DNA of 10,687 nt, from positions 1 through 10,687 of the IMG/VR virus record IMGVR_UViG_2740892444_000005. The stretch is one strand, 5' to 3'. The notes beneath the pieces were generated by a model. It saw nothing but the letters and a program-made list of their open reading frames with translations. It was not told where the DNA came from and did not search any database. The position numbers were made by a program, and so were the translations under genes. Within the stretch, counting starts at the first letter, position 1, and each line of letters begins with the position of its first letter. Origin of the DNA: a virus. Taxonomy: Duplodnaviria; Heunggongvirae; Uroviricota; Caudoviricetes. Positions 1 through 10,687 of this stretch are shown piece after piece.

Positions 1-16
1 TTACAAACTCACTACA

Positions 17-340
17 ATGCTGTATAATTCGCGAAGAGTGAATTTAGCTAGTGCATCCATAGGTTCAATTCCTATGCCTACAATTCTCATCACAGCTCTC
101 CTAATAGTCGCATTTATCCGTTACCTCAACGTGTTACTTAACGATTACGTCAGTAAGGAGAAGCCTATGAGTAAATTATTCTGCCATGTAGTACTATATG
201 TATCTTGTTTCATTGAAACTTTTTGGGCTGGGGTGATAAGTGTAGTAGCGGGTCTGATGACGGGCGGTGTCCAAATTATTTTGGCACTAGCTAAATCTTC
301 TCAATTTTTGTTTTTTTATTCAAAGCACTTACACCCATAA
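17..340 (+). CDS. small hydrophobic protein of unknown function (possible membrane peptide); 5' end unresolved
   Basis: The frame is open back to the window start (no in-frame stop in nt 2-16), so the gene may be 5'-partial. An alternative internal start ATG at 177 is preceded by AAGGAG (165-170). The product has hydrophobic stretches (ILITALLIVAF; GVISVVAGLMTGGVQIILALA). I recognise no family. Confidence 0.3.
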   Translation: MLYNSRRVNLASASIGSIPMPTILITALLIVAFIRYLNVLLNDYVSKEKPMSKLFCHVVLYVSCFIETFWAGVISVVAGLMTGGVQIILALAKSSQFLFFYSKHLHP

Positions 341-908
341 ATATTATTTAAATCAATAAACTAAGTCACTCTACGCATATTTTCCTTATCATGGTCTTTC
401 GTGTTTTTTGTACTCAACATGATCGTTTCCCCTTTCTTTAATACACAGTGTGATTAGCTACGTCTTCTGTTGGAGCGAAGTGGACGGGTTAATTGAGCTG
501 AATGTCAGCTATGAGCGAAGAGCGGACTTGAGACTATTGTAAATGAAAACCATATAATTTTAACCGGCAGAAACACATGAGTAATTTTAAGGCTAATTAG
601 TTATCTGGGAGATGAGGGGCAAAGCACGATATCGTACACCAATGGAATAACCTTATGATTAATATAAATATAAAAGACAGAAAGCCTTCCTCAAAATGGC
701 TTGAATCAGGTGCATCTGTCTGCGAAACGATTTTTTAGACGTTTTTATCGCTTTCAGTTCAGTTTTCCCCTCGAATCCAAGTGACAAAGCCGATTTAGTT
801 TTCACACATCCGTACAATGTGCATCCCTCGATGAGCCTTTTCAGGCAAAGTTACGGGGATGCTTGATTCATTTAAACTGAGTTAGTACAACTTAATTAAT
901 AATATCAT

Positions 909-1955
909 TTATGCTAGAGTTGAATATTCTCCATTTCCTCGGTCGGTGAGTGTTAATTCGCGGCCATTTTCTGTAAATGTAATGGCATCCAGCAGGCTTT
1001 TTCCTGTTACAGCTATACCATATCCAAGGTTATCAATCTTTGAACTGTCCTCAGATGATATTGGTATTTGTACAAGCATACCAACAACAAAGCCGTATTT
1101 GTTAATTATAGGGCCACCGCTATTCCCCCCCTTAACCCTAGCATTGAATAATAAAAAGTCTTGTGAATCTAAGTAAGAGTGACCAGAACCAACAATTCGC
1201 CCCTTTGACAGTCGGACAAACGAATTTATATGCGAAACGTCATATAACTTTAATGCATCAAATCCTGGAATGGGTGGAAATCCTATTGATAAAATTTCAT
1301 CCAGTACCGAGGCTTTGGTTGAGACCTTAAGTGGTTGAATATTATCTTCCTTCGGAATGGTTGTGAAAACTAAAGCGATATCAATACGTTCATCGTTAGA
1401 TACAAAGATTTTATGTATTGGTAAAGCCTCACCACCAGCTCTAAGTATCCTGATACTCTTCATGTCTTCAATAACATGTCTGGCTGTAAATATCGTGTGG
1501 TTATTCCCAACAATAAAACTAGTACCAAGATCATGTGAACCATCACTTTTTTCAACAACAACAGGTAAAACGGAAGGACTAAGGCGGTCTATGATTGACT
1601 CAAATCCATCAGCTATAAAATCATACTTTCCATATTTCGCATCTGATTCATTGAAATTCGGTGCGAAATAGCAACGGTCAAAAAGAGTATGTCCTGAAGA
1701 CAATTCCATTAAAATACCTTCAGTTGCTAGCTTTTCACAATTGCGTATTAACTTCATCATATCGAGAGTATTTTCCCACTCAGGTTTGAGACGGGTCAGG
1801 CTCTCAATTGTTTTTCTCTCTTTTACGTTATCGTTTTCCGGTTTGTCATAAAAATATTTCACTATTTCTGTTGGTGTTACATATGTTTTTTTTATAGTCA
1901 TTTTTGTACCCGCGATGACGTTATTCCATATATTTTTCTTTGTAGAAAATATCAC
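909..1955 (-). CDS. trypsin-like (S1/PA-clan) serine protease with uncharacterised ~135-aa N-terminal domain; no obvious signal peptide
   Basis: 348-aa ORF. The catalytic triad is in canonical order and context: His160 in TARHVIED, Asp192 in DIALVF, Ser279 in GGNSGGP (codons at nt ~1119-1121 on the minus strand). The N-terminus is not hydrophobic, so the protein is probably cytoplasmic. The start at 1955 is GTG; an alternative ATG lies at 1901 (M19). Neither has a strong Shine-Dalgarno sequence. The gene is AT-rich. Confidence 0.8.
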   Translation of the reverse strand: MIFSTKKNIWNNVIAGTKMTIKKTYVTPTEIVKYFYDKPENDNVKERKTIESLTRLKPEWENTLDMMKLIRNCEKLATEGILMELSSGHTLFDRCYFAPNFNESDAKYGKYDFIADGFESIIDRLSPSVLPVVVEKSDGSHDLGTSFIVGNNHTIFTARHVIEDMKSIRILRAGGEALPIHKIFVSNDERIDIALVFTTIPKEDNIQPLKVSTKASVLDEILSIGFPPIPGFDALKLYDVSHINSFVRLSKGRIVGSGHSYLDSQDFLLFNARVKGGNSGGPIINKYGFVVGMLVQIPISSEDSSKIDNLGYGIAVTGKSLLDAITFTENGRELTLTDRGNGEYSTLA

Positions 1956-2361
1956 TATTGCTGGTAAATGTTAAGTTCAGTGCTCGCACTAAAGCTGGAT
2001 GATCAACGTCGCCCTCGTATGGAAATCAGGTAAGATTCATGTCTACTTGGGGTCTAGGGTAGACAGCATAAAAACGTACGATAGCGTTCGATTGGCTCTC
2101 ACCCCCGCCTATAAACCATGAGGTTGATAGGGTAGTATCGTTAGGCAATAGTATACATGTAAGTATCCAACCTAATTGGTCTTGAGATTTCTAACTAACG
2201 TGTCGTTATGTCCGCTTTTGGCACATAGCAGTCCTAGAGACAGTGTCGTAAAGTCATGTAGGATCGGTGGGAGGAGGTAAAAATCCTCTCATACAAAAAT
2301 ACGTAAAATCGATAACGGCTGGAGATCATTCAATACTCGCCCTATCGAAAGCTCACCAGCC

Positions 2362-2397
2362 AGCCGCAACACGTTCTTACATATGACGTGTCTGCGG
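2362..2397. repeat. imperfect-palindrome hairpin element, copy A (paired with copy B at 4832-4867)
   Basis: AGCCGCAACACGTTCTTACATATGACGTGTCTGCGG matches 4832-4867 at 30 of 36 positions. It folds as CCGCA-ACACGTT / AACGTG-TGCGG with a 1-nt bulge. Weaker similarity extends into both flanks (ACCA..GCC upstream, TC.AA.C downstream). Confidence 0.6.
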
Positions 2398-2410
2398 TTT
2401 CAACTCCACC

Positions 2411-2447
2411 AGCCCACCAATCATGATTGGGCTTTTTCGTTTTTCTT
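2411..2447 (+). terminator. putative intrinsic terminator (GC-rich hairpin followed by T-tracts)
   Basis: AGCCCACCAATCATGATTGGGCT (stem AGCCCA/TGGGCT) is followed directly by TTTTTCGTTTTTCTT. The T-run follows the hairpin only on the plus strand. No plus-strand ORF lies upstream of it. Confidence 0.55.
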
Positions 2448-2574
2448 CACCTGCAAGCAAACCGTTGTATCATGGCGGAATGAAGATGAGCTAGGAATAA
2501 TCTTACGAATCAGCTCAATATTCATATAAAAACATTTCGAACTTTGGTGTACAAAACTACATAGGGATAACTTT

Positions 2575-3777
2575 ATGTCTCTTCGTTTCAGACAAACCTT
2601 TACTCTATTTCCTGGCGTTCGACTCAACATTGGCAAGCGTGGAATAAGTGCAAGCATTGGCGTGCCTGGCGCAACTGTCAATGTTGGTAAAAAAGGGGTT
2701 AGAGCAACTGTCGGATTACCGGGCACAGGCTTATCTTATACTACACCTACCTTGCCCTATGATGATGGATACTCAGTTACCAATCCATTAAATCCAGCCC
2801 CTACAGAACCTCATTTGGGGTCTGGGTCATCTCCAGAAAATACACCATCGAACGCTAAAATATATATGCCTGTAGCTGGCATGAATGAAATATCCAGCGC
2901 TTCGGTAGAAGTCCTTACAAGTACCTCCCTTTTACCTTTACGAGATTTGATTGCTAAAGCACGAGAACAAAGAGCAGAAATAAAAGCAGATCTTCAAGAG
3001 GCTCTTGCCGAAGAATCAAAACAAAAAAGCGAGCTGGCTCGACGCAAATCAAGTCTATTCCGTTGGTTTTACAAACGACGCATCGCAGAACTTGAGACAC
3101 TACTCCCCCTAACCCAAGCTGAGATATCTCGCCTAGTTTCATGGGAAGACAGCACAAAAATAGCCATAACATTCGAGAGCAGTGATGCTTCACAGCGCGC
3201 ATATGCAGCGATGGTCCATGCATTTGATATGTTAAAATCGAGTGTCAAAAAATGGGATATTACTGCAGATAAAGCTACAGACCAGTTTGCTGAAAGAACA
3301 TTAGCAACCCGGTCTGTTAATCGTCACCCAGTTACCTTTGATTTTAGTTCAACGGATCTCATTCAATTTACAGGGCGTGCGATGAGGTTTGAAAATGTGA
3401 ATGGAGACGATATTTTGCTTTATCCTGGAGTTGCAGTCATACCACGAGCTGATGGAGCATTCGCTCTGATTGATTTACGCGAATTACAAATTAATTCAGA
3501 ATATCTAAGATTCCATGAGGAAGAAGGTGTTCCCAGTGACTCACGCATAGATGGTTATACATGGGCGAAAACGAATAAGAATGGCTCACCAGACCGTCGT
3601 TTTAAAGATAACTACCAAATCCCTATTTGCATTTATGGAAATATTACTTTCCATTCTCAAACAGGGGTAACTGAAGAATATATGGTATCAAATGCAGATG
3701 CCGCGCACGCCTTTGCTGAGGCAGTAAAACGTTATCAGATTTCACTCACAGAAACAGAAGCGTTGGTACAGGCCTGA
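2575..3777 (+). CDS. DUF4236-type protein (N-terminal Gly/Lys/Arg-rich DUF4236-like module, P/S/T-rich linker, predicted coiled coil, uncharacterised C-terminal domain)
   Basis: 400-aa ORF with ATG at 2575 and RBS AGGGA at 2563-2567. The N-terminus RFRQTFTLFPGVRLNIGKRGISASIGVPGATVNVGKKGVRATVGLPGTGLSY matches my recollection of the DUF4236 signature. A low-complexity linker (PTLPYDDGYSVTNPLNPAPTEPHLGSGSSPENTPSN) and a charged helical segment (AKAREQRAEIKADLQEALAEESKQKSELARRK) follow. I cannot assign the C-terminal ~200 aa. The gene is AT-rich. Confidence 0.85.
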   Translation: MSLRFRQTFTLFPGVRLNIGKRGISASIGVPGATVNVGKKGVRATVGLPGTGLSYTTPTLPYDDGYSVTNPLNPAPTEPHLGSGSSPENTPSNAKIYMPVAGMNEISSASVEVLTSTSLLPLRDLIAKAREQRAEIKADLQEALAEESKQKSELARRKSSLFRWFYKRRIAELETLLPLTQAEISRLVSWEDSTKIAITFESSDASQRAYAAMVHAFDMLKSSVKKWDITADKATDQFAERTLATRSVNRHPVTFDFSSTDLIQFTGRAMRFENVNGDDILLYPGVAVIPRADGAFALIDLRELQINSEYLRFHEEEGVPSDSRIDGYTWAKTNKNGSPDRRFKDNYQIPICIYGNITFHSQTGVTEEYMVSNADAAHAFAEAVKRYQISLTETEALVQA

Positions 3778-3836
3778 TTTATCGCCGATATGGGGACGAA
3801 TCGTAGGTTAAAACCCCCTAGAACAAAAAAAACCTT

Positions 3837-3864
3837 AAGAACCAGACTATTATGGCTGGTTCTT
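3837..3864. other. perfect 9-bp-stem hairpin between the two cassette genes (possible terminator/attenuator)
   Basis: AAGAACCAG-(10 nt loop)-CTGGTTCTT. It lies 60 nt after the stop of the 2575-3777 gene and is preceded by an A8 tract (3823-3830). That gives a T8 run after the hairpin on the minus strand, with a 4-nt spacer. There is no clean T-run after it on the plus strand, so orientation and function are ambiguous. Confidence 0.3.
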
Positions 3865-3881
3865 GTACGGAGGATTTGTTA

Positions 3882-3908
3882 TTGTACAACTCTTCTATCT
3901 GGTATATT
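3882..3908 (+). promoter_or_regulatory. candidate sigma70 promoter with extended -10 for the DUF2971 gene
   Basis: -35-like TTGTAC (3882-3887), a 15-bp spacer (short), TG at 3900-3901 and -10 TATATT (3903-3908), i.e. TGgTATATT. It lies ~80 nt upstream of the ATG at 3991. Motif match only. Confidence 0.3.
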
Positions 3909-3990
3909 TACGGATAGAACTGTTCAGGCTACTCAATCCTTTTTAAGTACAAATGAACAGATAGAAATAGTTATATTGCAAGGAGCTATC

Positions 3991-4779
3991 ATGCACACTG
4001 AGTATATATGGCGATACCTTGACATAGAGAAATTCTCTATGTTACTCGAACAAAATGCTTTATTTTTTTGCTCAGCAAAAAATTTTGAAGATCCGTTCGA
4101 AGGTGAATTTGCTTGGGGACATACTGGCTATAAAAAATTCATTGAGACACAGGAAAAACTATGCGCTACTTATGGTGCCGGCATGGACTTAGATCCTTTC
4201 ATGGCATTCAATTTAAAGACACTTAAGGAAATAAGCGAGAGGACATATATAAGTTGCTGGCATTGTAACGAACATGAATCTGAAGCTATGTGGAAGCTGT
4301 ATTGTAAAAACCCCGCTAAAGGCGTTGTCATAAAATCAAAGAAAAAAAACCTCCAAAGCCAACTTGAAAATAATAATCTAAACAAACTACAATTAAAACA
4401 CGTAAAATACGTCAAAAATTTCTGGATAAAACAATACAATCCAGAATCAGATGTATTCTTTAACAAGAGACCATCTTTCGAATACGAAAAAGAGTTTAGA
4501 GCTATTTTTCAAGAGAATACCTTTAACACTCCACCTGTAAAGGGAAAACTAGTCCCTGTATCTCTTAATAATCTGTTGGAAGAAATAAGGATTTCACCTT
4601 TCGCAGATAAGGATTTCAAAAATGAAGTTTTACAAATTTCAAAAAAACATGGACTAGATCTGAAAGTCAAAAACTCTGAAATTGAAATGCATCCCATCAT
4701 GCATGTTGAGGAAGAAATAATTGCAGAAGGCCCCAATTGGTATCAGTCAAAAATCAGATTGGCAATACGTGATGCTTAA
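3991..4779 (+). CDS. DUF2971-type protein
   Basis: 262-aa product starting at the ATG at 3991, which is preceded by AGGAG (3981-3985). The ORF-track start at 3790 is rejected because it has no RBS and the extension spans the hairpin. The family hallmarks as I recall them are present: YIWRYLDIEKFSMLLEQNALFFCSAKNFEDPFEGEF, CWHCNEHESEAMWKLYCKNPAKGVVIK and FEYEKEFRAIF. The gene is AT-rich. Confidence 0.85.
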   Translation: MHTEYIWRYLDIEKFSMLLEQNALFFCSAKNFEDPFEGEFAWGHTGYKKFIETQEKLCATYGAGMDLDPFMAFNLKTLKEISERTYISCWHCNEHESEAMWKLYCKNPAKGVVIKSKKKNLQSQLENNNLNKLQLKHVKYVKNFWIKQYNPESDVFFNKRPSFEYEKEFRAIFQENTFNTPPVKGKLVPVSLNNLLEEIRISPFADKDFKNEVLQISKKHGLDLKVKNSEIEMHPIMHVEEEIIAEGPNWYQSKIRLAIRDA

Positions 4780-4831
4780 TCTTATATTGAAGTTTTTTAT
4801 GTCTCCTGCTGAAACTAGCTAAAATTTACCA

Positions 4832-4867
4832 AGCCGCAGCACGTTATTGCATACAACGTGTATGCGG
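4832..4867. repeat. imperfect-palindrome hairpin element, copy B; probable bidirectional terminator between convergent DUF2971 gene and tfa
   Basis: AGCCGCAGCACGTTATTGCATACAACGTGTATGCGG has the same fold as copy A. It lies 15 nt from the tfa stop (4883-4885) and ~50 nt after the DUF2971 stop. Confidence 0.6.
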
Positions 4868-4882
4868 CGTATCTCAAAACGA

Positions 4883-5467
4883 TTACTCCATAACAGGGAC
4901 AGCAGGCCACTCAATATCAGGTGCAGTTGATGTATCAACACGGTTCAGCAACACCCGATACTTCTTCCAGGCTTCCAGCAACGAGTTTTCTTCCTCCGTT
5001 GCGATCTCCAGATCTACAGCATCCTGAAGTGGCGCAATATGCTCACTGGCTACCTGCATCAGGCTGTTTTTTGTTTCTTCCGCCTCCCGGATCCGGAACA
5101 GTTTTTCTGCTTCCGTATCCTTCACCCAGGCTGTGCCGTTCCACTTCTGAAACTCCCCTTCCGGCGATAACCAGGTAACATTTTCCGGTAACGGACCGAG
5201 TTCAGAAATAAATAACGCGTCGCCGGAAGCCACGTCATAAACCGTTTTACCCCGATGGTCTTCAACGAGATGCCACGATGCCTCATCACTGTTGAAAACA
5301 GCCACAAAGCCAGCAGGAATATCTGGTGGTGCAATATCGGTACTGTTTGCTGGCAGACCTGTATGAGGCGGAATATATGCGTCACCTTCACCAATAAATT
5401 CATTAGTCCCGACCAGCAGATTATAAATTTTTATGGTCCGTGGTTGTTCACTCATTCTGAATGCCAT
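4883..5467 (-). CDS. tfa: tail fiber assembly protein (lambda Tfa-like)
   Basis: 194-aa product, [18 protein letters not shown]...EWPAVPVME, is near-identical in length and sequence to lambda Tfa as I recall it. Its start overlaps the upstream stf stop (TAATG on the minus strand at 5465-5469). Confidence 0.9.
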
Positions 5468-6678
5468 TATGCAAGCCTCACAATATAGTTAAATGCGATG
5501 TTTTTGACGGTGTTTTCCGCATTACCAGCAGCGTTAACGGTGATGGTGTGTCCATGTGAACCAATCGCAACGGAGTGCGTATGAGCACCAATACCGACAG
5601 TATGCGCGTGTGCACCTGCAGATGCTGCTGTGCCGGACAGTGAGTGGCTATGATTACCATCTGTACTGGTATTAGCTAACCACCCCGTAGACATACCTAC
5701 TGAGCCTTGTACACCCCAGGTATTTTGACCTGAGCTTGTATAACCATATTGATAAGTATCTTTAAAAACACTGGGGTTAAATCGACGGCCATCTCTATGG
5801 CTGTGATTACCAGCTGCATTCGTGCTGCCACTTAAACTATGAGTATGCGCACCAGTGTTATTCGTGGATTTAGTGCCGTAATCAAACGATGATGTGGTTT
5901 TCGTACCCAAATCCGTACTGGATACGCTGGCGCTGTGGGTGTGCGATTTAATGCCGTCCTGTTCCTGAGACAATACGGCACGACCACTGGCGGGCTTGCC
6001 CTTAATCGTCCAGCCACGCATATCAGGGATCACGCCTGACGGATAAGCGGCTGCAAGTTTCGGGTAAGCAGATTTGTCAAAAGTCTGCCCCTGCATCAGG
6101 GCATAACCAGACGGAACGGTATCTGATGGCCACGGGATTGGTGCGCCGACTGGGTAGCTTTCTGGTGGAAGATTTTTCGAGGTATAAACTTCTGCCCAGT
6201 CTTCCTCAAAACCATAACCGTCTCTTGAAGAACGGTAGAACAGACCACCATTTCTGTAATGCGCCTTCATCTGCAGGGTCCGGCAACTTCCGACTCCGGT
6301 ATAGAAGTTAACCAGAATATAGCTGTCGCCAGAGCGGGTGACATTGTAAGCGCCTGATTCGGCATTCCAGGGAACGCCACCATCCGCATCGGCATATGTA
6401 TCCGTTGCCCTTCTGGCAAAAGCAGCCACATGCGCGGCGGTTATCCAGATTAACCAAATCCTTGTTGTTGGGGAATAACTAGGTCCACCTCGCCTGATGT
6501 GGCTAAAAGCAGGCACATAACAGCTAAGTATTTTCAACCAGAGAGAATCCTTAGCGTTGTGGTGAATGCGGCTCAGCGCACGCGGGTTAAGGTTGAGGCT
6601 GACAGTCGACCTTCTGTGGATACCCACCCGCCTGGTGTGCAACCTTCGCCAGGCACCGGGAGGCACCCGGCACCACAA
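5467..6678 (-). pseudogene. stf: side tail fiber protein remnant (C-terminal portion only, 5'-truncated)
   Basis: The C-terminal ~320 aa match the lambda Stf / StfR-type C-terminus as I recall it ([31 protein letters not shown]...[25 protein letters not shown]...[27 protein letters not shown]), including the periodic His-rich motifs (GAHTHS, GNHSHS, GAHAHT, GSHGHT). The N-terminal ~85 aa of the ORF (nt ~6420-6678) read as non-protein-like sequence, and no plausible start or upstream stf body is present. Full-length Stf is far longer. Confidence 0.8.
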
Positions 6679-6701
6679 CTTTATGCTGTGTGTAGTCCTG
6701 G

Positions 6702-6747
6702 CGGTACCAGTTTGTACCCTTGCTTCCGGCTGGTACCGTCCTTTTTT
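6702..6747 (+). terminator. putative intrinsic terminator (9-bp perfect stem, T6 tract)
   Basis: CGGTACCAG (6702-6710) and CTGGTACCG (6730-6738) form a perfect inverted repeat, each arm containing GGTACC, with a 19-nt loop. It is followed by TCC then TTTTTT (6742-6747). The T-run is on the plus strand only. The loop is unusually long. Confidence 0.4.
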
Positions 6748-6748
6748 G

Positions 6749-6835
6749 CAAAACAGAGAAGAGCATCACCGGACGACGGGCTCATAACCCAATCCATCCG
6801 GGCGGCTGCCACCGCAGGTGTTCTTCTCTGTTTTG
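6749..6835. repeat. long inverted repeat / extended hairpin (14-bp perfect arms, ~59-nt spacer) upstream of the yfdP-like gene
   Basis: CAAAACAGAGAAGA (6749-6762) pairs with TCTTCTCTGTTTTG (6822-6835). The pairing extends imperfectly inward (ATCACC.. with ..GGTG). It sits immediately after the 6702-6747 hairpin and ~50 nt upstream of the yfdP-like start. Confidence 0.4.
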
Positions 6836-6884
6836 TGGAGAAACCAACCGACCTTGCAGGGTCGATATGATGAGGAGCAGCAAA

Positions 6885-7247
6885 ATGGCTAGCGAACGCA
6901 GTACTGATGTGCAGGCATTTATCGGGGAGCTGGACGGCGGCGTATTTGAAACCAAAATCGGCGCAGTTCTCAGTGAAGTCGCTTCCGGTGTGATGAACAC
7001 GAAAACCAAAGGGAAGGTCTCACTCAATCTGGAAATCGAACCGTTTGATGAGAACCGTGTGAAAATCAAACACAAACTCTCATATGTTCGCCCAACTAAC
7101 CGCGGGAAAATTTCTGAAGAAGACACCACCGAAACGCCGATGTATGTCAATCGCGGTGGTCGCCTGACTATTCTGCAGGAAGACCAGGGACAATTACTGA
7201 CTCTTGCCGGTGAGCCTGACGGAAAACTCCGCGCAGCAGGTCATTAA
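6885..7247 (+). CDS. yfdP: YfdP-like prophage protein (unknown function)
   Basis: 120-aa product starting MASERSTDVQAFIGELDGG, from the ATG at 6885 preceded by GAGGAG (6872-6877). Alternative in-frame ATGs at 6867 and 6870 would add 5-6 aa. Length and sequence match my recollection of K-12 CPS-53 YfdP; the symbol is from memory. Confidence 0.65.
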   Translation: MASERSTDVQAFIGELDGGVFETKIGAVLSEVASGVMNTKTKGKVSLNLEIEPFDENRVKIKHKLSYVRPTNRGKISEEDTTETPMYVNRGGRLTILQEDQGQLLTLAGEPDGKLRAAGH

Positions 7248-7312
7248 TATCGTTCTTAATTAACTGATTATTTATCTCATCACTGAATATCTTAATATAG
7301 TGAGGACTTATT

Positions 7313-8137
7313 ATGTCTCAGAACTTAGACGCAACCGCAATTAATCAAATCCATGCCCTTATTTCTGCTCAGGGTGTTAATGAAATTATCAGTAAGATTG
7401 GTGCCGATGCTGTGGCATTGCCTGAGAATTTCCGCATTCATGATCTGGAAAAATTTAATTTAAATCGCTTCCGTTTCCGTGGTGCGCTTTCCACTGCCAG
7501 CATCGATGACTTTACCCGTTATTCTAAAGATCTTGCAGATGAAGGCACCCGCTGCTTTATCGATGCTGATAATATGCGTGCCGTCAGTGTGCTTAACCTG
7601 GGTACTATTGATGAACCAGGTCACGCAGATAACACCGCCACTCTCAAACTGAAAAAGACAGCACCGTTCTCTGCCCTGTTGTCTGTTAACGGCGAGCGTA
7701 ACGCCCAGAAATCACTGGCAGAATGGATTGAAGACTGGGCAGACTACCTTGTGGGCTTTGATGCTAATGGTGACGCCATTCAGGCAACAAAAGCGGCTGC
7801 GGCAATCCGTAAAATCACGATTGAAGCAAACCAGACCGCTGATTTTGAAGATAATGACTTCAGCGGCAAACGCTCCCTGATGGAATCTGTCGAAGCGAAG
7901 ACCAAAGACATTATGCCAGTGGCATTTGAATTTAAATGCGTTCCGTTTGAAGGTCTGAAAGAACGTCCGTTTAAATTACGCCTCAGCATTATCACTGGCG
8001 ATCGTCCTGTACTGGTTCTGCGCATTATTCAGCTGGAAGCGGTGCAGGAAGATATGGCTAACGAATTTCGTGATCTGCTTGTTGAGAAATTCAAAGACAG
8101 CAAAGTAGAAACCTTTATTGGTACTTTCACCGCCTGA
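7313..8137 (+). CDS. yfdQ: YfdQ-like prophage protein (DUF2303 family)
   Basis: 274-aa product starting [26 protein letters not shown], with RBS GAGGA at 7303-7307. It matches my recollection of K-12 YfdQ (274 aa). Confidence 0.8.
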
Positions 8138-8149
8138 TTTCATTACTGC

Positions 8150-8171
8150 AAATGCCCCTGTGGGGGCATTT
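8150..8171 (+). other. hairpin after yfdQ-like gene (weak candidate terminator/attenuator)
   Basis: AAATGCCCC-TGTG-GGGGCATTT: a 9-bp perfect stem with a 4-nt loop, 13 nt after the yfdQ stop. The T residues lie inside the 3' arm rather than forming a free U-tract, so termination is uncertain. Confidence 0.25.
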
Positions 8172-8264
8172 ATGGAAACGTAATTAACTCAATAATCACC
8201 GAATGGTGAGGGCTTCCTTTTACCCAAACTCAGCGCGGTGCAGCGCATATACGTGGAGAACAAA

Positions 8265-8801
8265 ATGTCATTTATTAAAACTTTTTCCGGGAAGCATTTT
8301 TATTATGACAAGATAAATAAAGACGACATCGTGATTAACGATATCGCGGTTTCCCTTTCAAATATCTGCCGCTTTGCCGGTCATCTTTCTCACTTCTACA
8401 GTGTCGCCCAACATGCGGTGCTTTGCAGCCAGCTGGTGCCGCAGGAATTTGCTTTTGAAGCGTTAATGCATGATGCAACAGAAGCGTATTGCCAGGACAT
8501 CCCCGCACCACTGAAACGCCTTCTTCCTGACTATAAACGGATGGAAGAAAAAATAGATGCAGTAATCCGTGAGAAATACGGGTTACCTCCTGTTATGAGC
8601 ACGCCAGTGAAATATGCCGATCTCATTATGCTGGCAACCGAACGCCGTGATCTCGGGCTTGATGATGGCTCTTTATGGCCTGTACTGGAAGGTATCCCGG
8701 CAACAGAGATGTTCAAAGTTATTCCACTGGCACCGGGCCATGCCTACGGGATGTTTATGGAACGCTTCAACGAGTTATCGGAATTACGCAAATGTGCATA
8801 A
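8265..8801 (+). CDS. yfdR: HD-domain phosphohydrolase (YfdR-like)
   Basis: 178-aa product from the ATG at 8265 (RBS GGAGAA at 8255-8260; the ORF-track start at 8238 is rejected). It has HD-superfamily motifs (HLSHFYSVAQHAVL; ALMHDATEAYCQD). It matches my recollection of K-12 YfdR. Confidence 0.85.
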   Translation: MSFIKTFSGKHFYYDKINKDDIVINDIAVSLSNICRFAGHLSHFYSVAQHAVLCSQLVPQEFAFEALMHDATEAYCQDIPAPLKRLLPDYKRMEEKIDAVIREKYGLPPVMSTPVKYADLIMLATERRDLGLDDGSLWPVLEGIPATEMFKVIPLAPGHAYGMFMERFNELSELRKCA

Positions 8802-9670
8802 CTCATGTAGTTAGTTTTTCTGGCGGGAGAACATCCGCATATCTTGTTCACCTGATGGAAGAACAAAGAAAGGCTGGCAATAACGTCTGCTACATCTTTA
8901 TGGATACCGGTTGCGAACATCCGCTGACATACCGCTTTATCCGGGAGGTTGTGAAGTTCTGGGACATACCACTAACTGTGTTACAGGTCGATATAAATCC
9001 TGAGCTTGGGCAGCCAAATGGTTATACAGAATGGGAGCCAAAGGATATTCAGACACGAATGCCGGTGCTTAAACCGTTTATGGACATGGTTAAAAAGTAC
9101 GGCACGCCATACATCGGCGGCGCGTTCTGTACTGACAGGCTAAAACTCATCCCTTTCACGAAATACTGCGATAACCATTTCGGACGAGGTAATTACATCA
9201 CATGGCTGGGTATTCGTGCAGACGAACCCCGTAGGCTGAAACCGAAATCGGGCATCCGGTATCTTGCCGAGCTGTCAGATTTTGATAAGTCGGATGTTAT
9301 CCGGTGGTGGCGAAAACAACCTTTTGATTTGCAAATCCCGGAGCATCTCGGGAACTGTGTTTTCTGCATCAAAAAGTCAACGCAAAAGCTGGGGCTTGCA
9401 TGTAAAGACGAACCAGGTCTGATGCGAGTTTTTAATGAGCTGGTTACAGGCAAACACGTCAGGGATGGTCATCGCAGAACAGGTAAAGACATTATGTACC
9501 GTGGTCACCTGACGCTTGACGGAATTGCCAGAATGTCTGCCAACAGCGACTACAGAAATTTGTATCAGGCAATGGTACAGGCCAGGCGATTCGATACCGG
9601 CTCGTGTTCAGAGTCATGTGAAATCTGGGGTGATCAATTGGAATTGGAATTCGAAGAGGTAGGGGTATGA
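8792..9670 (+). CDS. PAPS-reductase-like / PP-loop ATP-pyrophosphatase family protein (phage type)
   Basis: 292-aa product from the ATG at 8792, which overlaps the yfdR stop (ATGTGCATAA). The N-terminal PP-loop motif SFSGGRTS is present. Relatives are common in lambdoid prophage early regions. The ORF-track start at 8675 is rejected because it would overlap yfdR by ~40 codons. Confidence 0.8.
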   Translation: MCITHVVSFSGGRTSAYLVHLMEEQRKAGNNVCYIFMDTGCEHPLTYRFIREVVKFWDIPLTVLQVDINPELGQPNGYTEWEPKDIQTRMPVLKPFMDMVKKYGTPYIGGAFCTDRLKLIPFTKYCDNHFGRGNYITWLGIRADEPRRLKPKSGIRYLAELSDFDKSDVIRWWRKQPFDLQIPEHLGNCVFCIKKSTQKLGLACKDEPGLMRVFNELVTGKHVRDGHRRTGKDIMYRGHLTLDGIARMSANSDYRNLYQAMVQARRFDTGSCSESCEIWGDQLELEFEEVGV

Positions 9671-10011
9671 CAACCGAAATCAGCTACCATGCACTGCTTG
9701 AGCGCGCACGGAATAAAGTGCAGAGCATTGAGTTCGCCTTAACACAGAGTGCATTCGCTGAGATTCGCGCTGAGCTTGAAAATGATTTAGAACTGGCACG
9801 GATTGCACTGGCATCTCTGGAAGTTGAGCCAGATGAACGCGCAGCCTATGAATTATTTATGGAAAAGCGTTTCGGTAAAACAGTCGATCGTCGGAGAGCA
9901 AAAAACGGCGATAACGAATACATGGCATGGGATATGACTCTCGGTTGGATCGTCTGGCAGCAACGAGCTGGTATCCATTTTTCAACAATGTCACAGCAAG
10001 AGGTGAAATAA
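9667..10011 (+). CDS. hypothetical prophage early-region protein
   Basis: 114-aa ORF. Its ATG overlaps the upstream stop (ATGA at 9667-9670) and its stop overlaps the xis start (TAATG at 10009-10013). Acidic, helical-looking sequence. No family recognised. Confidence 0.65.
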   Translation: MTTEISYHALLERARNKVQSIEFALTQSAFAEIRAELENDLELARIALASLEVEPDERAAYELFMEKRFGKTVDRRRAKNGDNEYMAWDMTLGWIVWQQRAGIHFSTMSQQEVK

Positions 10012-10361
10012 TGGAGCCATACAGCCTCACACTCGATGAGGCCTGTCATTTTCTCAAGATATCCAGACCGACTGCCATTAACTGGATACGCACAGGGCGT
10101 CTTCAGGCAACACGCAAAGATCCCACTAAGAATAAATCTCCTTACCTCACAACACGACAAGCCTGCATTGCGGCTCTTCAGTCTCCGCTGCATACTGTCC
10201 AGGTGAGCGCGGGTGATGGCATAACAGAGGAAAGAAAATGTCACTCTTCCGCAGAGGTGAAATATGGTACGCCAGTTTCACATTGCCGAACGGTAAAAGA
10301 TTTAAACAGTCTCTTGGAACAAAGGACAAAAGGCAGGCGACAGAACTCCATGACAAGCTAA
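10011..10361 (+). CDS. xis: excisionase (P22 Xis-like)
   Basis: 116-aa product [40 protein letters not shown], with RBS GAGGTGA at 10002-10008. It matches my recollection of P22-type Xis in length and sequence. It sits immediately upstream of, and overlapping, the integrase start. Confidence 0.75.
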
Positions 10362-10687
10362 AGGCTGAAGCATGGCGGGTCAGCAAACTTGGTGAAATAC
10401 CTGATATAACGTTCGAGGAAGCGTGTGTCAGGTGGCTTGAAGAGAAAGCACATAAAAAATCACTGGACGATGACAAAAGCCGGATCGGATTCTGGCTTCA
10501 ACATTTCGCAGGAATGCAACTAAGAGACATTACTGAATCAAAAATTTATTCAGCAATGCAGAAAATGACGAACCGGCGTCATGAGGAAAACTGGAAACTC
10601 AGGGCAGAAGCATGCAGAAAAAAAGGGAAACCTGTTCCAGAATACACGCCAAAACCAGCGTCCGTTGCAACGAAGGCTACGCACTGA
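10238..10687 (+). CDS. int: tyrosine integrase, N-terminal (arm-binding) region only; frame ends at TGA 10685-10687
   Basis: [46 protein letters not shown] is the N-terminus of P22 / CPS-53 IntS-type integrases as I recall them. RBS AGAGGA at 10226-10231. The frame terminates after 149 aa, whereas family members are ~385 aa. No catalytic domain is visible in this window. Confidence 0.8.

Follow-up and report, generated by a model that had tools for sequence, protein, structure and literature searches.

A stem-loop that occurs twice in a lambdoid prophage of Escherichia coli appears to mark the two edges of a cargo slot. The window, by which we mean the whole 10,687-nucleotide (nt) stretch of DNA that was analysed (positions 1 to 10,687 of IMG/VR record IMGVR_UViG_2740892444_000005), belongs to a CPS-53/Rac-like prophage that adjoins thrW in some strains. 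Its order is an S1 peptidase gene (minus strand), hairpin copy A, genes for a DUF4236 and a DUF2971 protein (plus strand), hairpin copy B, the tail fibre assembly gene tfa with a truncated tail fibre gene (minus strand), yfdQ and a PAPS-reductase-like gene. The slot has the late tail-fibre operon (stf-tfa) on one side and the att/int part of the genome on the other, which is the position of the b region of phage lambda (the 'moron' or defence slot). Cargo-free relatives have one hairpin between a conserved non-coding unit, X + Lf1, and the tfa stop codon. In cargo-bearing loci the cargo is found to the right of the Lf1-linked hairpin and, where a lambda-type tfa is present, a second, tfa-linked hairpin stands at the far end. 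In our judgement A and B are probably anciently diverged alleles of a single stem-loop of lambdoid phages that marks the slot edges, would act as an RNA 3′ end or insulator, and is accompanied by flanks whose homology would allow the cargo to be swapped.

Two related hairpins enclose an AT-rich module

The initial annotation described two imperfect palindromes on either side of the DUF4236/DUF2971 cassette, folding alike, with B placed 15 nt from the end of tfa. This description was reproduced in all its parts. The two copies (Table 1) have the same orientation and are identical at 30 of 36 positions, and a degenerate pattern spanning both matches exactly 2 sites in the 10.7-kb window and 0 in 200 dinucleotide-preserving shuffles. 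Both fold into a stem of 12–13 bp with one bulged base each. The folding energy on the plus strand is −18.8 kcal/mol for A (z −4.4) and −19.0 kcal/mol for B (z −3.9), a stability equalled by 0 of 200 shuffles; on the minus strand it is −18.3 and −20.0 kcal/mol, respectively. With −18 to −20 kcal/mol and a conserved stem, A and B have the stable G+C-rich stem-loop of an intrinsic (Rho-independent) terminator. The spacing between B and the stop codon of the minus-strand tfa gene is indeed 15 nt, and the module enclosed by the two copies is foreign and AT-rich, with a G+C content of 0.32–0.44 over positions 2400–4800 compared to 0.50 from 4801, or tfa, onward.

Across 23 distinct hairpin variants 97.4% of cells are paired, including one C:G to A:U double change. 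The bulged base is T, G, A or absent, 8 of 12 stem pairs are invariant, and loop positions are conserved. Two alleles can be distinguished by the loop. The A-type allele, with loop C[T/C]TGCATACG, is linked to Lf1, and the B-type allele, with loop ATT[G/T]CATACA, abuts tfa in 55 of its 61 instances.

Conservation of the stem and of part of the loop beyond the needs of pairing could suggest that a dimeric regulator binds the palindrome as an operator-like DNA site, its half-sites being CACGTT...AACGTG. We consider this very improbable: no candidate regulator is linked to the palindrome, pairing is retained in the sole change that affects both arms, the position of the bulge is free to vary, and the element is found at the 3′ ends of genes and not at promoters.

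Related layouts in phages lambda and HK97

Phage lambda carries homologs of both copies. The counterpart of B lies 15 nt past the stop codon of tfa (orf-194) and that of A is found in the spacer between ea31 and ea47; the lambda record has no feature annotated at either site. Written in the orientation of the window, the lambda order is int–attP–sib–ea59–ea31–[X + Lf1]–hairpin–ea47–hairpin–tfa. The b region of lambda and the slot in the window therefore share homologous hairpins in the same order, orientation and spacing logic, with X + Lf1 preceding the distal copy and one cargo unit in between, ea47 having the position and orientation that DUF4236 + DUF2971 have in the window. They differ in the cargo itself, in a few hairpin positions, and in the distal lambda copy, which is without the TTT tail. 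A homology of Ea47 to the DUF4236 protein was considered and rejected, the proteins being unrelated on comparison. The split into A-type and B-type alleles is common to lambda and the window, which indicates that the two-copy architecture predates their divergence and that the cargo between the hairpins has since been replaced.

Window positions 2200–2397 align with lambda 24162–24360, and within this alignment the non-coding part before A (2208–2361) corresponds to lambda 24196–24360. This suggests that block X, the leader Lf1 and the hairpin form one conserved non-coding unit, with copy A at its 3′ end. The left edge of block X is sharp and recurs as a megablast boundary at query positions 249–252. 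Lf1 is ~87–91% identical across HK97, HK106, mEp460, Stx phages and lambda, and it is also present in Rac-like and Pin-invertible-fibre prophages. Its left edge is sharp as well and occurs in at least 5 different upstream contexts; the neighbour on that side is sib, the stop codon of a dinI-like gene, a Rac-type attP arm or block X. Lf1 is non-coding, since indels break every frame. No conserved RNA structure was predicted in Lf1, where alifold gave the terminal hairpin only, and a search of Rfam returned no family matching it.

Block X carries a T-arm-like stretch, GGAGGT(T/A)(C/A)AAATCCTCTC. An origin of the block from a tRNA or tRNA fragment was rejected, ARAGORN and Rfam both being negative and the T-arm-like stretch showing no covariation.

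In HK97 the order is int–att core/attP–annotated sib, immediately followed by Lf1 + hairpin and then tfa. The position of the unit is reminiscent of the sib element (tI) of lambda and HK97, since, viewed from int, it is found immediately past attP on the strand transcribed in the int operon, and comes to lie at the prophage end opposite int, as in Rac. However, sib of HK97 is annotated separately at 21042–21091, directly upstream of Lf1, and the Lf1-hairpin unit starts at 21041 and runs distally. The sequences show no similarity, and the stem of the hairpin is much shorter than an RNase III substrate. An identity with sib/tI was rejected on these grounds. The hairpin is not part of the attP core either, as the single K-12 copy is positioned ~200 bp inside attR of Rac.

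Distribution, empty sites and other cargos

A 59-nt query around B has matches in 4470 of 5426 complete E. coli genomes, with a median of 1 place per genome and a maximum of 5, and the inspected contexts are all prophage. This copy number and the prophage-only inspected contexts exclude a dispersed repeat of the repetitive extragenic palindrome (REP) or bacterial interspersed mosaic element (BIME) kind, a genome-wide REP-like repeat being what the initial annotation had named as evidence against a tie to cargo boundaries. K-12 has the hairpin in the right end of Rac, with TTTTT after it. In strain 2015C-3107 a Rac-type integrase gene lies ~290 bp upstream of the hairpin and ynaM-ydfK-pin comes next, and in O157 the hairpin stands between a methyltransferase gene and stress/catalase cargo.

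The comparative survey comprised 201 hairpin instances at 163 loci, obtained by two pattern scans of IMG/VR and fetched records. Loci with two copies have them in direct orientation without exception, and the hairpin converges with tfa at all loci where a tfa end was identified. Clustering of the 100 nt on each side gave 7 left-flank and 12 right-flank classes, which are combined mosaically. If the slot can be vacant, related prophages lacking the cassette should have a single copy next to tfa, and such empty sites were found: one hairpin joins the left flank of A directly to tfa in 20 loci of the first set and 40 of the enlarged one. The 40 Lf1-hairpin-tfa sites comprise 33 with the B-type and 7 with the A-type allele. 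An empty site is present at the same thrW prophage in strain Ec-U11, where Avs2 is located to the left of block X.

A search for the element beside other cargo, proposed along with the empty sites, was also productive, as the same hairpin abuts many different cargos. The Lf1 flank is joined through the hairpin to at least 10 unrelated cargo sequences, which include ynaM-ydfK-pin, a Pin invertase with invertible fibres, ea47, the DUF4236/DUF2971 cassette, a putative restriction-modification pair (judged from open reading frame (ORF) translations only) and others. Cargo at the hairpin is AT-rich and varied, and also comprises the stress/catalase set, the methyltransferase and PDC-S31-like genes. 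Two direct copies are present in 38 loci with three main types of cargo, namely tfa′ + methyltransferase, ea47, and DUF4236/DUF2971. The locus thus shows what characterizes a moron or phage cargo hotspot: empty sites exist, unrelated cargos alternate, and the base composition of the cargo is atypical.

Exact fragments of the lambda b region were encountered in assemblies of Bradyrhizobium, Streptomyces, Chromatium, Pseudoxanthomonas, Leeuwenhoekiella and Tardiphaga (loci L145, L170, L173, L180, L191, L194, L199, L203, L204, L228 and L243). Their occurrence in unrelated organisms is most likely due to contamination of the assemblies with lambda DNA.

The hairpin is tightly linked to lambda-type tfa, following its stop codon at 15–16 nt in 91 of the 170 tfa ends of the set, and in the methyltransferase cargo class the duplication does include ~200 nt of the tfa 3′ end. 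Both observations would suit the alternative put forward in the initial annotation, in which copy A is what survives of a further tfa-type gene, deleted except for its 3′ end. For the window this origin is contradicted by the surroundings of A and we find it hardly credible. The left flank of A is the non-coding block that is found in the ea31–ea47 spacer of lambda and past sib in HK97. A tblastn search with three Tfa proteins gave no remnant beside A, the nearest tfa end being the real one at a distance of 2486 nt. The side of A where tfa would be expected is the cargo promoter region, and the other side is Lf1/X, which belongs to the att/int side in HK97 and in Rac-type phages.

Possible recombination at the element

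Similarity between A and B had been reported to continue weakly into the flanks. This was confirmed for one side only: ~20 nt directly left of B resemble the 3′ end of the block preceding A, and no similarity exists to the right of the hairpins. In anchored alignments, the flank left of B gave a z of 3.25 with the Rac-type Lf1 variant, a score reached by 22 of 5000 shuffles, and with the flank of A itself a score reached by 85 of 5000. Local alignments made without an anchor, of the flank with Lf1 and with the corresponding lambda flank, were not significant.

The DUF4236/DUF2971 cassette occurs in 122 complete E. coli genomes at a coverage of at least 80%. Among the matches listed, all run through hairpin B and span both copies, and a cassette with only one copy, which the initial annotation had named as refuting evidence, was not seen. 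The left ends of the matches coincide with the query start, with the left edge of X (~2208) or with that of Lf1 (~2300), and never fall just inside hairpin A. The joints at ~2208 and ~2300 indicate that hairpin A is not the joint used when the cassette spread between prophages. Insertion or exchange of the module by recombination at the element, as initially proposed, was not demonstrated: A and B are old, diverged alleles, lambda has the same arrangement, and there is no fresh duplication.

Other observations could point to recombination at the hairpin itself. In 38 of 45 pairs of right-flank classes that share Lf1, similarity stops 0–5 nt after the hairpin. Breakpoints so close to the hairpin edge would be consistent with a dedicated recombination or docking site for cassette capture, with the two copies as footprints of insertion. 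Capture could proceed by breakage promoted by a hairpin or cruciform, or by short-homology annealing through Red/RecET-type recombinases, in a way comparable to integron attC sites or to the 'linker' sequences of modular evolution. It would also agree with such a site that direct copies bracket three different types of cargo and that hairpins at empty sites are A-type, B-type or apparently chimeric (L115), as crossover from hairpin to hairpin predicts. The bulged imperfect palindrome recalls attC, with which it shares the extra-helical base, direct orientation and position at cassette boundaries. The exchange mechanism at phage hotspots is an acknowledged open question (PMC9122126), which may be counted in favour of a docking site.

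However, no recombinase is consistently linked to the hairpin, the neighbours being integrases of lambda, Rac or thrW type, Pin invertases, or none. By inspection, the element has no resemblance to an att core, to the dif or hix consensus or to attC R/L; it has arms of 11–12 bp and a centre of 9–11 nt, and neither GTTRRRY nor RYYYAAC was found in it. The slot is also unlike an integron in having no IntI integrase and no cassette arrays, but a single position for cargo. The copies differ at 6 of 36 positions and lambda has the same split, from which it follows that they were duplicated long ago. When the DUF4236 cassette spread, both hairpins moved with it, and the joints lay elsewhere than at the hairpin. 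Moreover, joints at hairpin edges could equally be those that survive because intact terminators are selected for. A dedicated docking site is therefore unlikely in our view. We would also bet against the related proposal that hairpin and Lf1 together form an active cassette-exchange signal, a structured short-homology docking sequence that guides the capture and swapping of cargo and defence genes in the b region. An alternative that is compatible with such an exchange signal is that the Lf1-hairpin is a widespread, undescribed small RNA (sRNA) of prophages.

Possible transcript ends and small RNAs

On the plus strand the stem is followed by TTTTT in 33 loci of the Rac/ydfK type and by TTTCA in A and HK97, and copies that abut tfa have no T-run. 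Distal copies thus mostly have T-rich sequence after them. No class shows a U-run next to the stem on the minus strand. In the window, the U-run 3′ of the stem of A consists of TTTCAACT only; B has none on the plus strand and CUUGGUAAAUUUU on the minus strand. The assignment of B as the tfa terminator is accordingly plausible but not more than that, as an adjacent U-tract is absent in either direction.

A second terminator-like hairpin with a T-run (2411–2444) stands in tandem with copy A, immediately before the cargo genes. Several other cargo classes (Rf4, Rf5 and L249) share the flank of this second hairpin (CAACTCC...CCAATCATGATTGG).

A leader without predicted structure, ahead of a stable hairpin and TTT or TTTTT, has the architecture of an Hfq-type sRNA. 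Lf1 and hairpin A could then be an sRNA gene, or an sRNA processed from a 3′ untranslated region (3′UTR), of ~85–100 nt, with an unstructured seed body and a terminator hairpin, that is present in many lambdoid prophages. Copy B would be a truncated and non-functional copy surviving as the 3′ hairpin of tfa. In line with this, the 64-nt Lf1 is sharp-edged, non-coding and ~88–91% conserved across very different phages, and in some phages it comes immediately after sib or a dinI-like stop codon, as expected of a 3′UTR. Small RNAs with conserved 3′ hairpins are known from moron sites of prophages (PMC4104026). Against an sRNA, a conserved promoter was not found, upstream sequences differ between classes, and the U-tract is absent in lambda. 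Lf1 has no match in Rfam, is not PasB, the probe sequence of which differs, and the supplements of Hfq crosslinking and immunoprecipitation (CLIP) studies in enterohaemorrhagic E. coli contain no match to the element. We regard the sRNA as possible but doubtful; from its sequence, Lf1 is a candidate for an sRNA body or for a shared 3′UTR.

The Rfam family CssrB (RF02799, an sRNA of Shigella) has a 3′-terminal stem-loop whose consensus is identical to a common hairpin variant on the minus strand (window 2365–2401; L023 1973–2035). It is the one Rfam contact of the hairpin and the sole lead, an indirect one, to an RNA 3′ end at this site. The scores, 20.6 bits for the window and 32.6 bits for L023 compared to a gathering threshold of 76, are sub-threshold and refer to the last 36 of 180 model positions only, and the body of the RNA is unrelated. 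Among known prophage sRNAs, PasB and svsR were rejected, the latter being located in the 3′ end of cI. AgvB, AsxR, Esr41 and STnc100 were also rejected as identities, as there was no Rfam match.

Proposed role of the hairpin

In view of the above, the hairpin is probably an RNA 3′-end or insulator structure for converging transcription units. In plus-strand RNA it would end or insulate transcripts that arrive from the int/sib/dinI side and from the cargo, and in minus-strand RNA it would cap the 3′ end of the tfa message. When cargo is present between the two units, each unit would keep its own copy of the hairpin. X + Lf1 + hairpin on one side and hairpin + tfa on the other would constitute patches of homology, and ordinary homologous recombination between co-resident lambdoid phages could swap whatever lies between these patches. 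New joints would survive mainly just outside the hairpins. The element looks like a module-boundary element and reveals no new kind of mobile element.

Several points weigh against this interpretation. A simple scan for a hairpin followed by a T-run calls neither A nor B a terminator, and there is no U-tract at B on either strand or at the lambda copies. RNA polymerase modified by N or Q would ignore such signals. Conservation of stem and loop exceeds what a plain terminator needs and might instead be due to a sequence-specific ligand or to recent common descent. A single compensatory pair gives thin support from covariation. The surveyed loci were gathered by pattern match, by which their frequencies are biased, and in a taxonomic scan with a relaxed pattern the matches listed were mostly chance matches in high-GC genomes and lambda contamination.

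That morons are bounded by terminator-like hairpins, and that variable cargo follows tail-fibre genes, is already established (Juhala et al. 2000 as cited in PMC4104026; PMC9122126). As described there for lambdoid morons (Juhala et al. 2000, cited in PMC4104026), the cargo in the window consists of extra genes of atypical composition between neighbours that are adjacent in relatives, with a terminator-like hairpin at the boundary. The difference from that account is that the hairpin found here is not a private terminator of each moron; it is a single conserved family, forms part of the flanking phage modules and occurs at either side of the cargo. An incomplete search of the literature yielded no description of the hairpin/Lf1 unit, or of a terminator after lambda tfa or in the ea31–ea47 spacer.

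Genes and other features of the window

The features discussed are collected in Table 1.

Table 1. Position and characteristics of hairpins, conserved non-coding blocks and genes in the window
Feature	Position	Strand	Sequence or basis
S1/trypsin-like peptidase, neighbouring cargo gene	909–1955	−	Pfam Trypsin_2, 1.9e-17
Conserved non-coding block X	2208–2297	+	Homologous to lambda ~24270–24360; aligned across 50 unique loci
Core conserved leader Lf1, 64 nt, always ending in the hairpin	2298–2361	+	Sequence conservation
Hairpin copy A, distal A-type allele	2362–2397	+	AGCCGCAACACGTTCTTACATATGACGTGTCTGCGG, then TTTCAACT; homologous to lambda 24162–24195
Second hairpin with T-run, terminator-like, 14 nt after copy A	2411–2444	+	GCCCACCAATCATGATTGGGC TTTTTCGTTTTT; fold −9 kcal/mol
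Cargo gene 1, DUF4236 protein, 400 aa	2575–3777	+	Pfam DUF4236, 3e-21
Cargo gene 2, DUF2971 protein, 329 aa, candidate defence gene	3790–4779	+	Pfam DUF2971; PADLOC PDC-S31, 2.6e-20
Short remnant of the 3′ end of Lf1, directly left of copy B	4812–4831	+	ACTAGCTAAAATTTACCA; anchored alignment
Hairpin copy B, tfa-linked B-type allele	4832–4867	+	AGCCGCAGCACGTTATTGCATACAACGTGTATGCGG; homologous to lambda 22573–22606
Tail fibre assembly gene tfa	4883–5467	−	Pfam Caudo_TAP, 7.8e-45; protein near-identical to lambda Tfa

PDC-S31, the PADLOC family matched by the DUF2971 protein, is a family of candidate defence proteins. The DUF2971 ORF of 329 aa is counted from the first ATG; the RefSeq product is shorter (246 aa; L001 10039–10779), and the gene is unannotated in some genomes.

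The peptidase gene lies left of the conserved non-coding block, in a second cargo slot, and its product has partial PADLOC matches to protease domains of defence proteins. The same peptidase cargo is present in a P2-like prophage of strain ETEC4090 (L248 3950–5270), between the tail-fibre assembly and tail sheath genes. The ~270 nt upstream of the gene (window 1960–2229) are 100% identical in the two prophages, and the identity ends at ~2229, within a GTCCGC...GCGGAC hairpin of the P2-like copy. The shared gene and its identical upstream sequence indicate that the 'after-tfa' hotspots of P2-like and lambdoid phages share cargo. The defence hotspots of P2-like phages (Rousset et al. 2022, PMC9122126) are similar to the slot described here in that a variable cargo locus is located beside a tail-fibre assembly gene, but a copy of the hairpin was not seen in the inspected P2-like locus. 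The Z/fun hotspot of P2-like phages was rejected as the context of the window, which is lambdoid in view of yfdP-Q-R and the lambda-type tfa.

A full-length match to Rfam IS009 (227 bits) is located within the coding sequence of tfa (4926–5124, minus strand). A sub-threshold STnc100-like match (40.3 bits compared to 47) is present at 6526–6749 on the plus strand, between the tail-fibre remnant and yfdP. At the junction of the truncated tail fibre gene and the early region, a 24-nt inverted repeat (6749–6772 and 6812–6835) is 83% complementary, with its arms 39 nt apart. Genomes of the VE-T2 type, otherwise 100% identical to the window, lack ~3.8 kb (window ~5093–8900), and this deletion fuses a tfa fragment to a truncated PAPS-reductase-like gene (L001 10883–11857).

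Implications

The units X + Lf1 + hairpin and hairpin + tfa are sequence landmarks for a main cargo and defence slot of lambda-like prophages. With these landmarks the slot is easy to delimit and to mine across thousands of genomes, and the textbook phage lambda itself has the same architecture around ea47. If the hairpin and Lf1 were an active exchange signal, they would supply a mechanism for the turnover of phage defence hotspots. The exchange of cargo at hotspots becomes accessible to experiment, by comparing hairpin-dependent with flank-dependent transfer and by measuring terminator or insulator activity.

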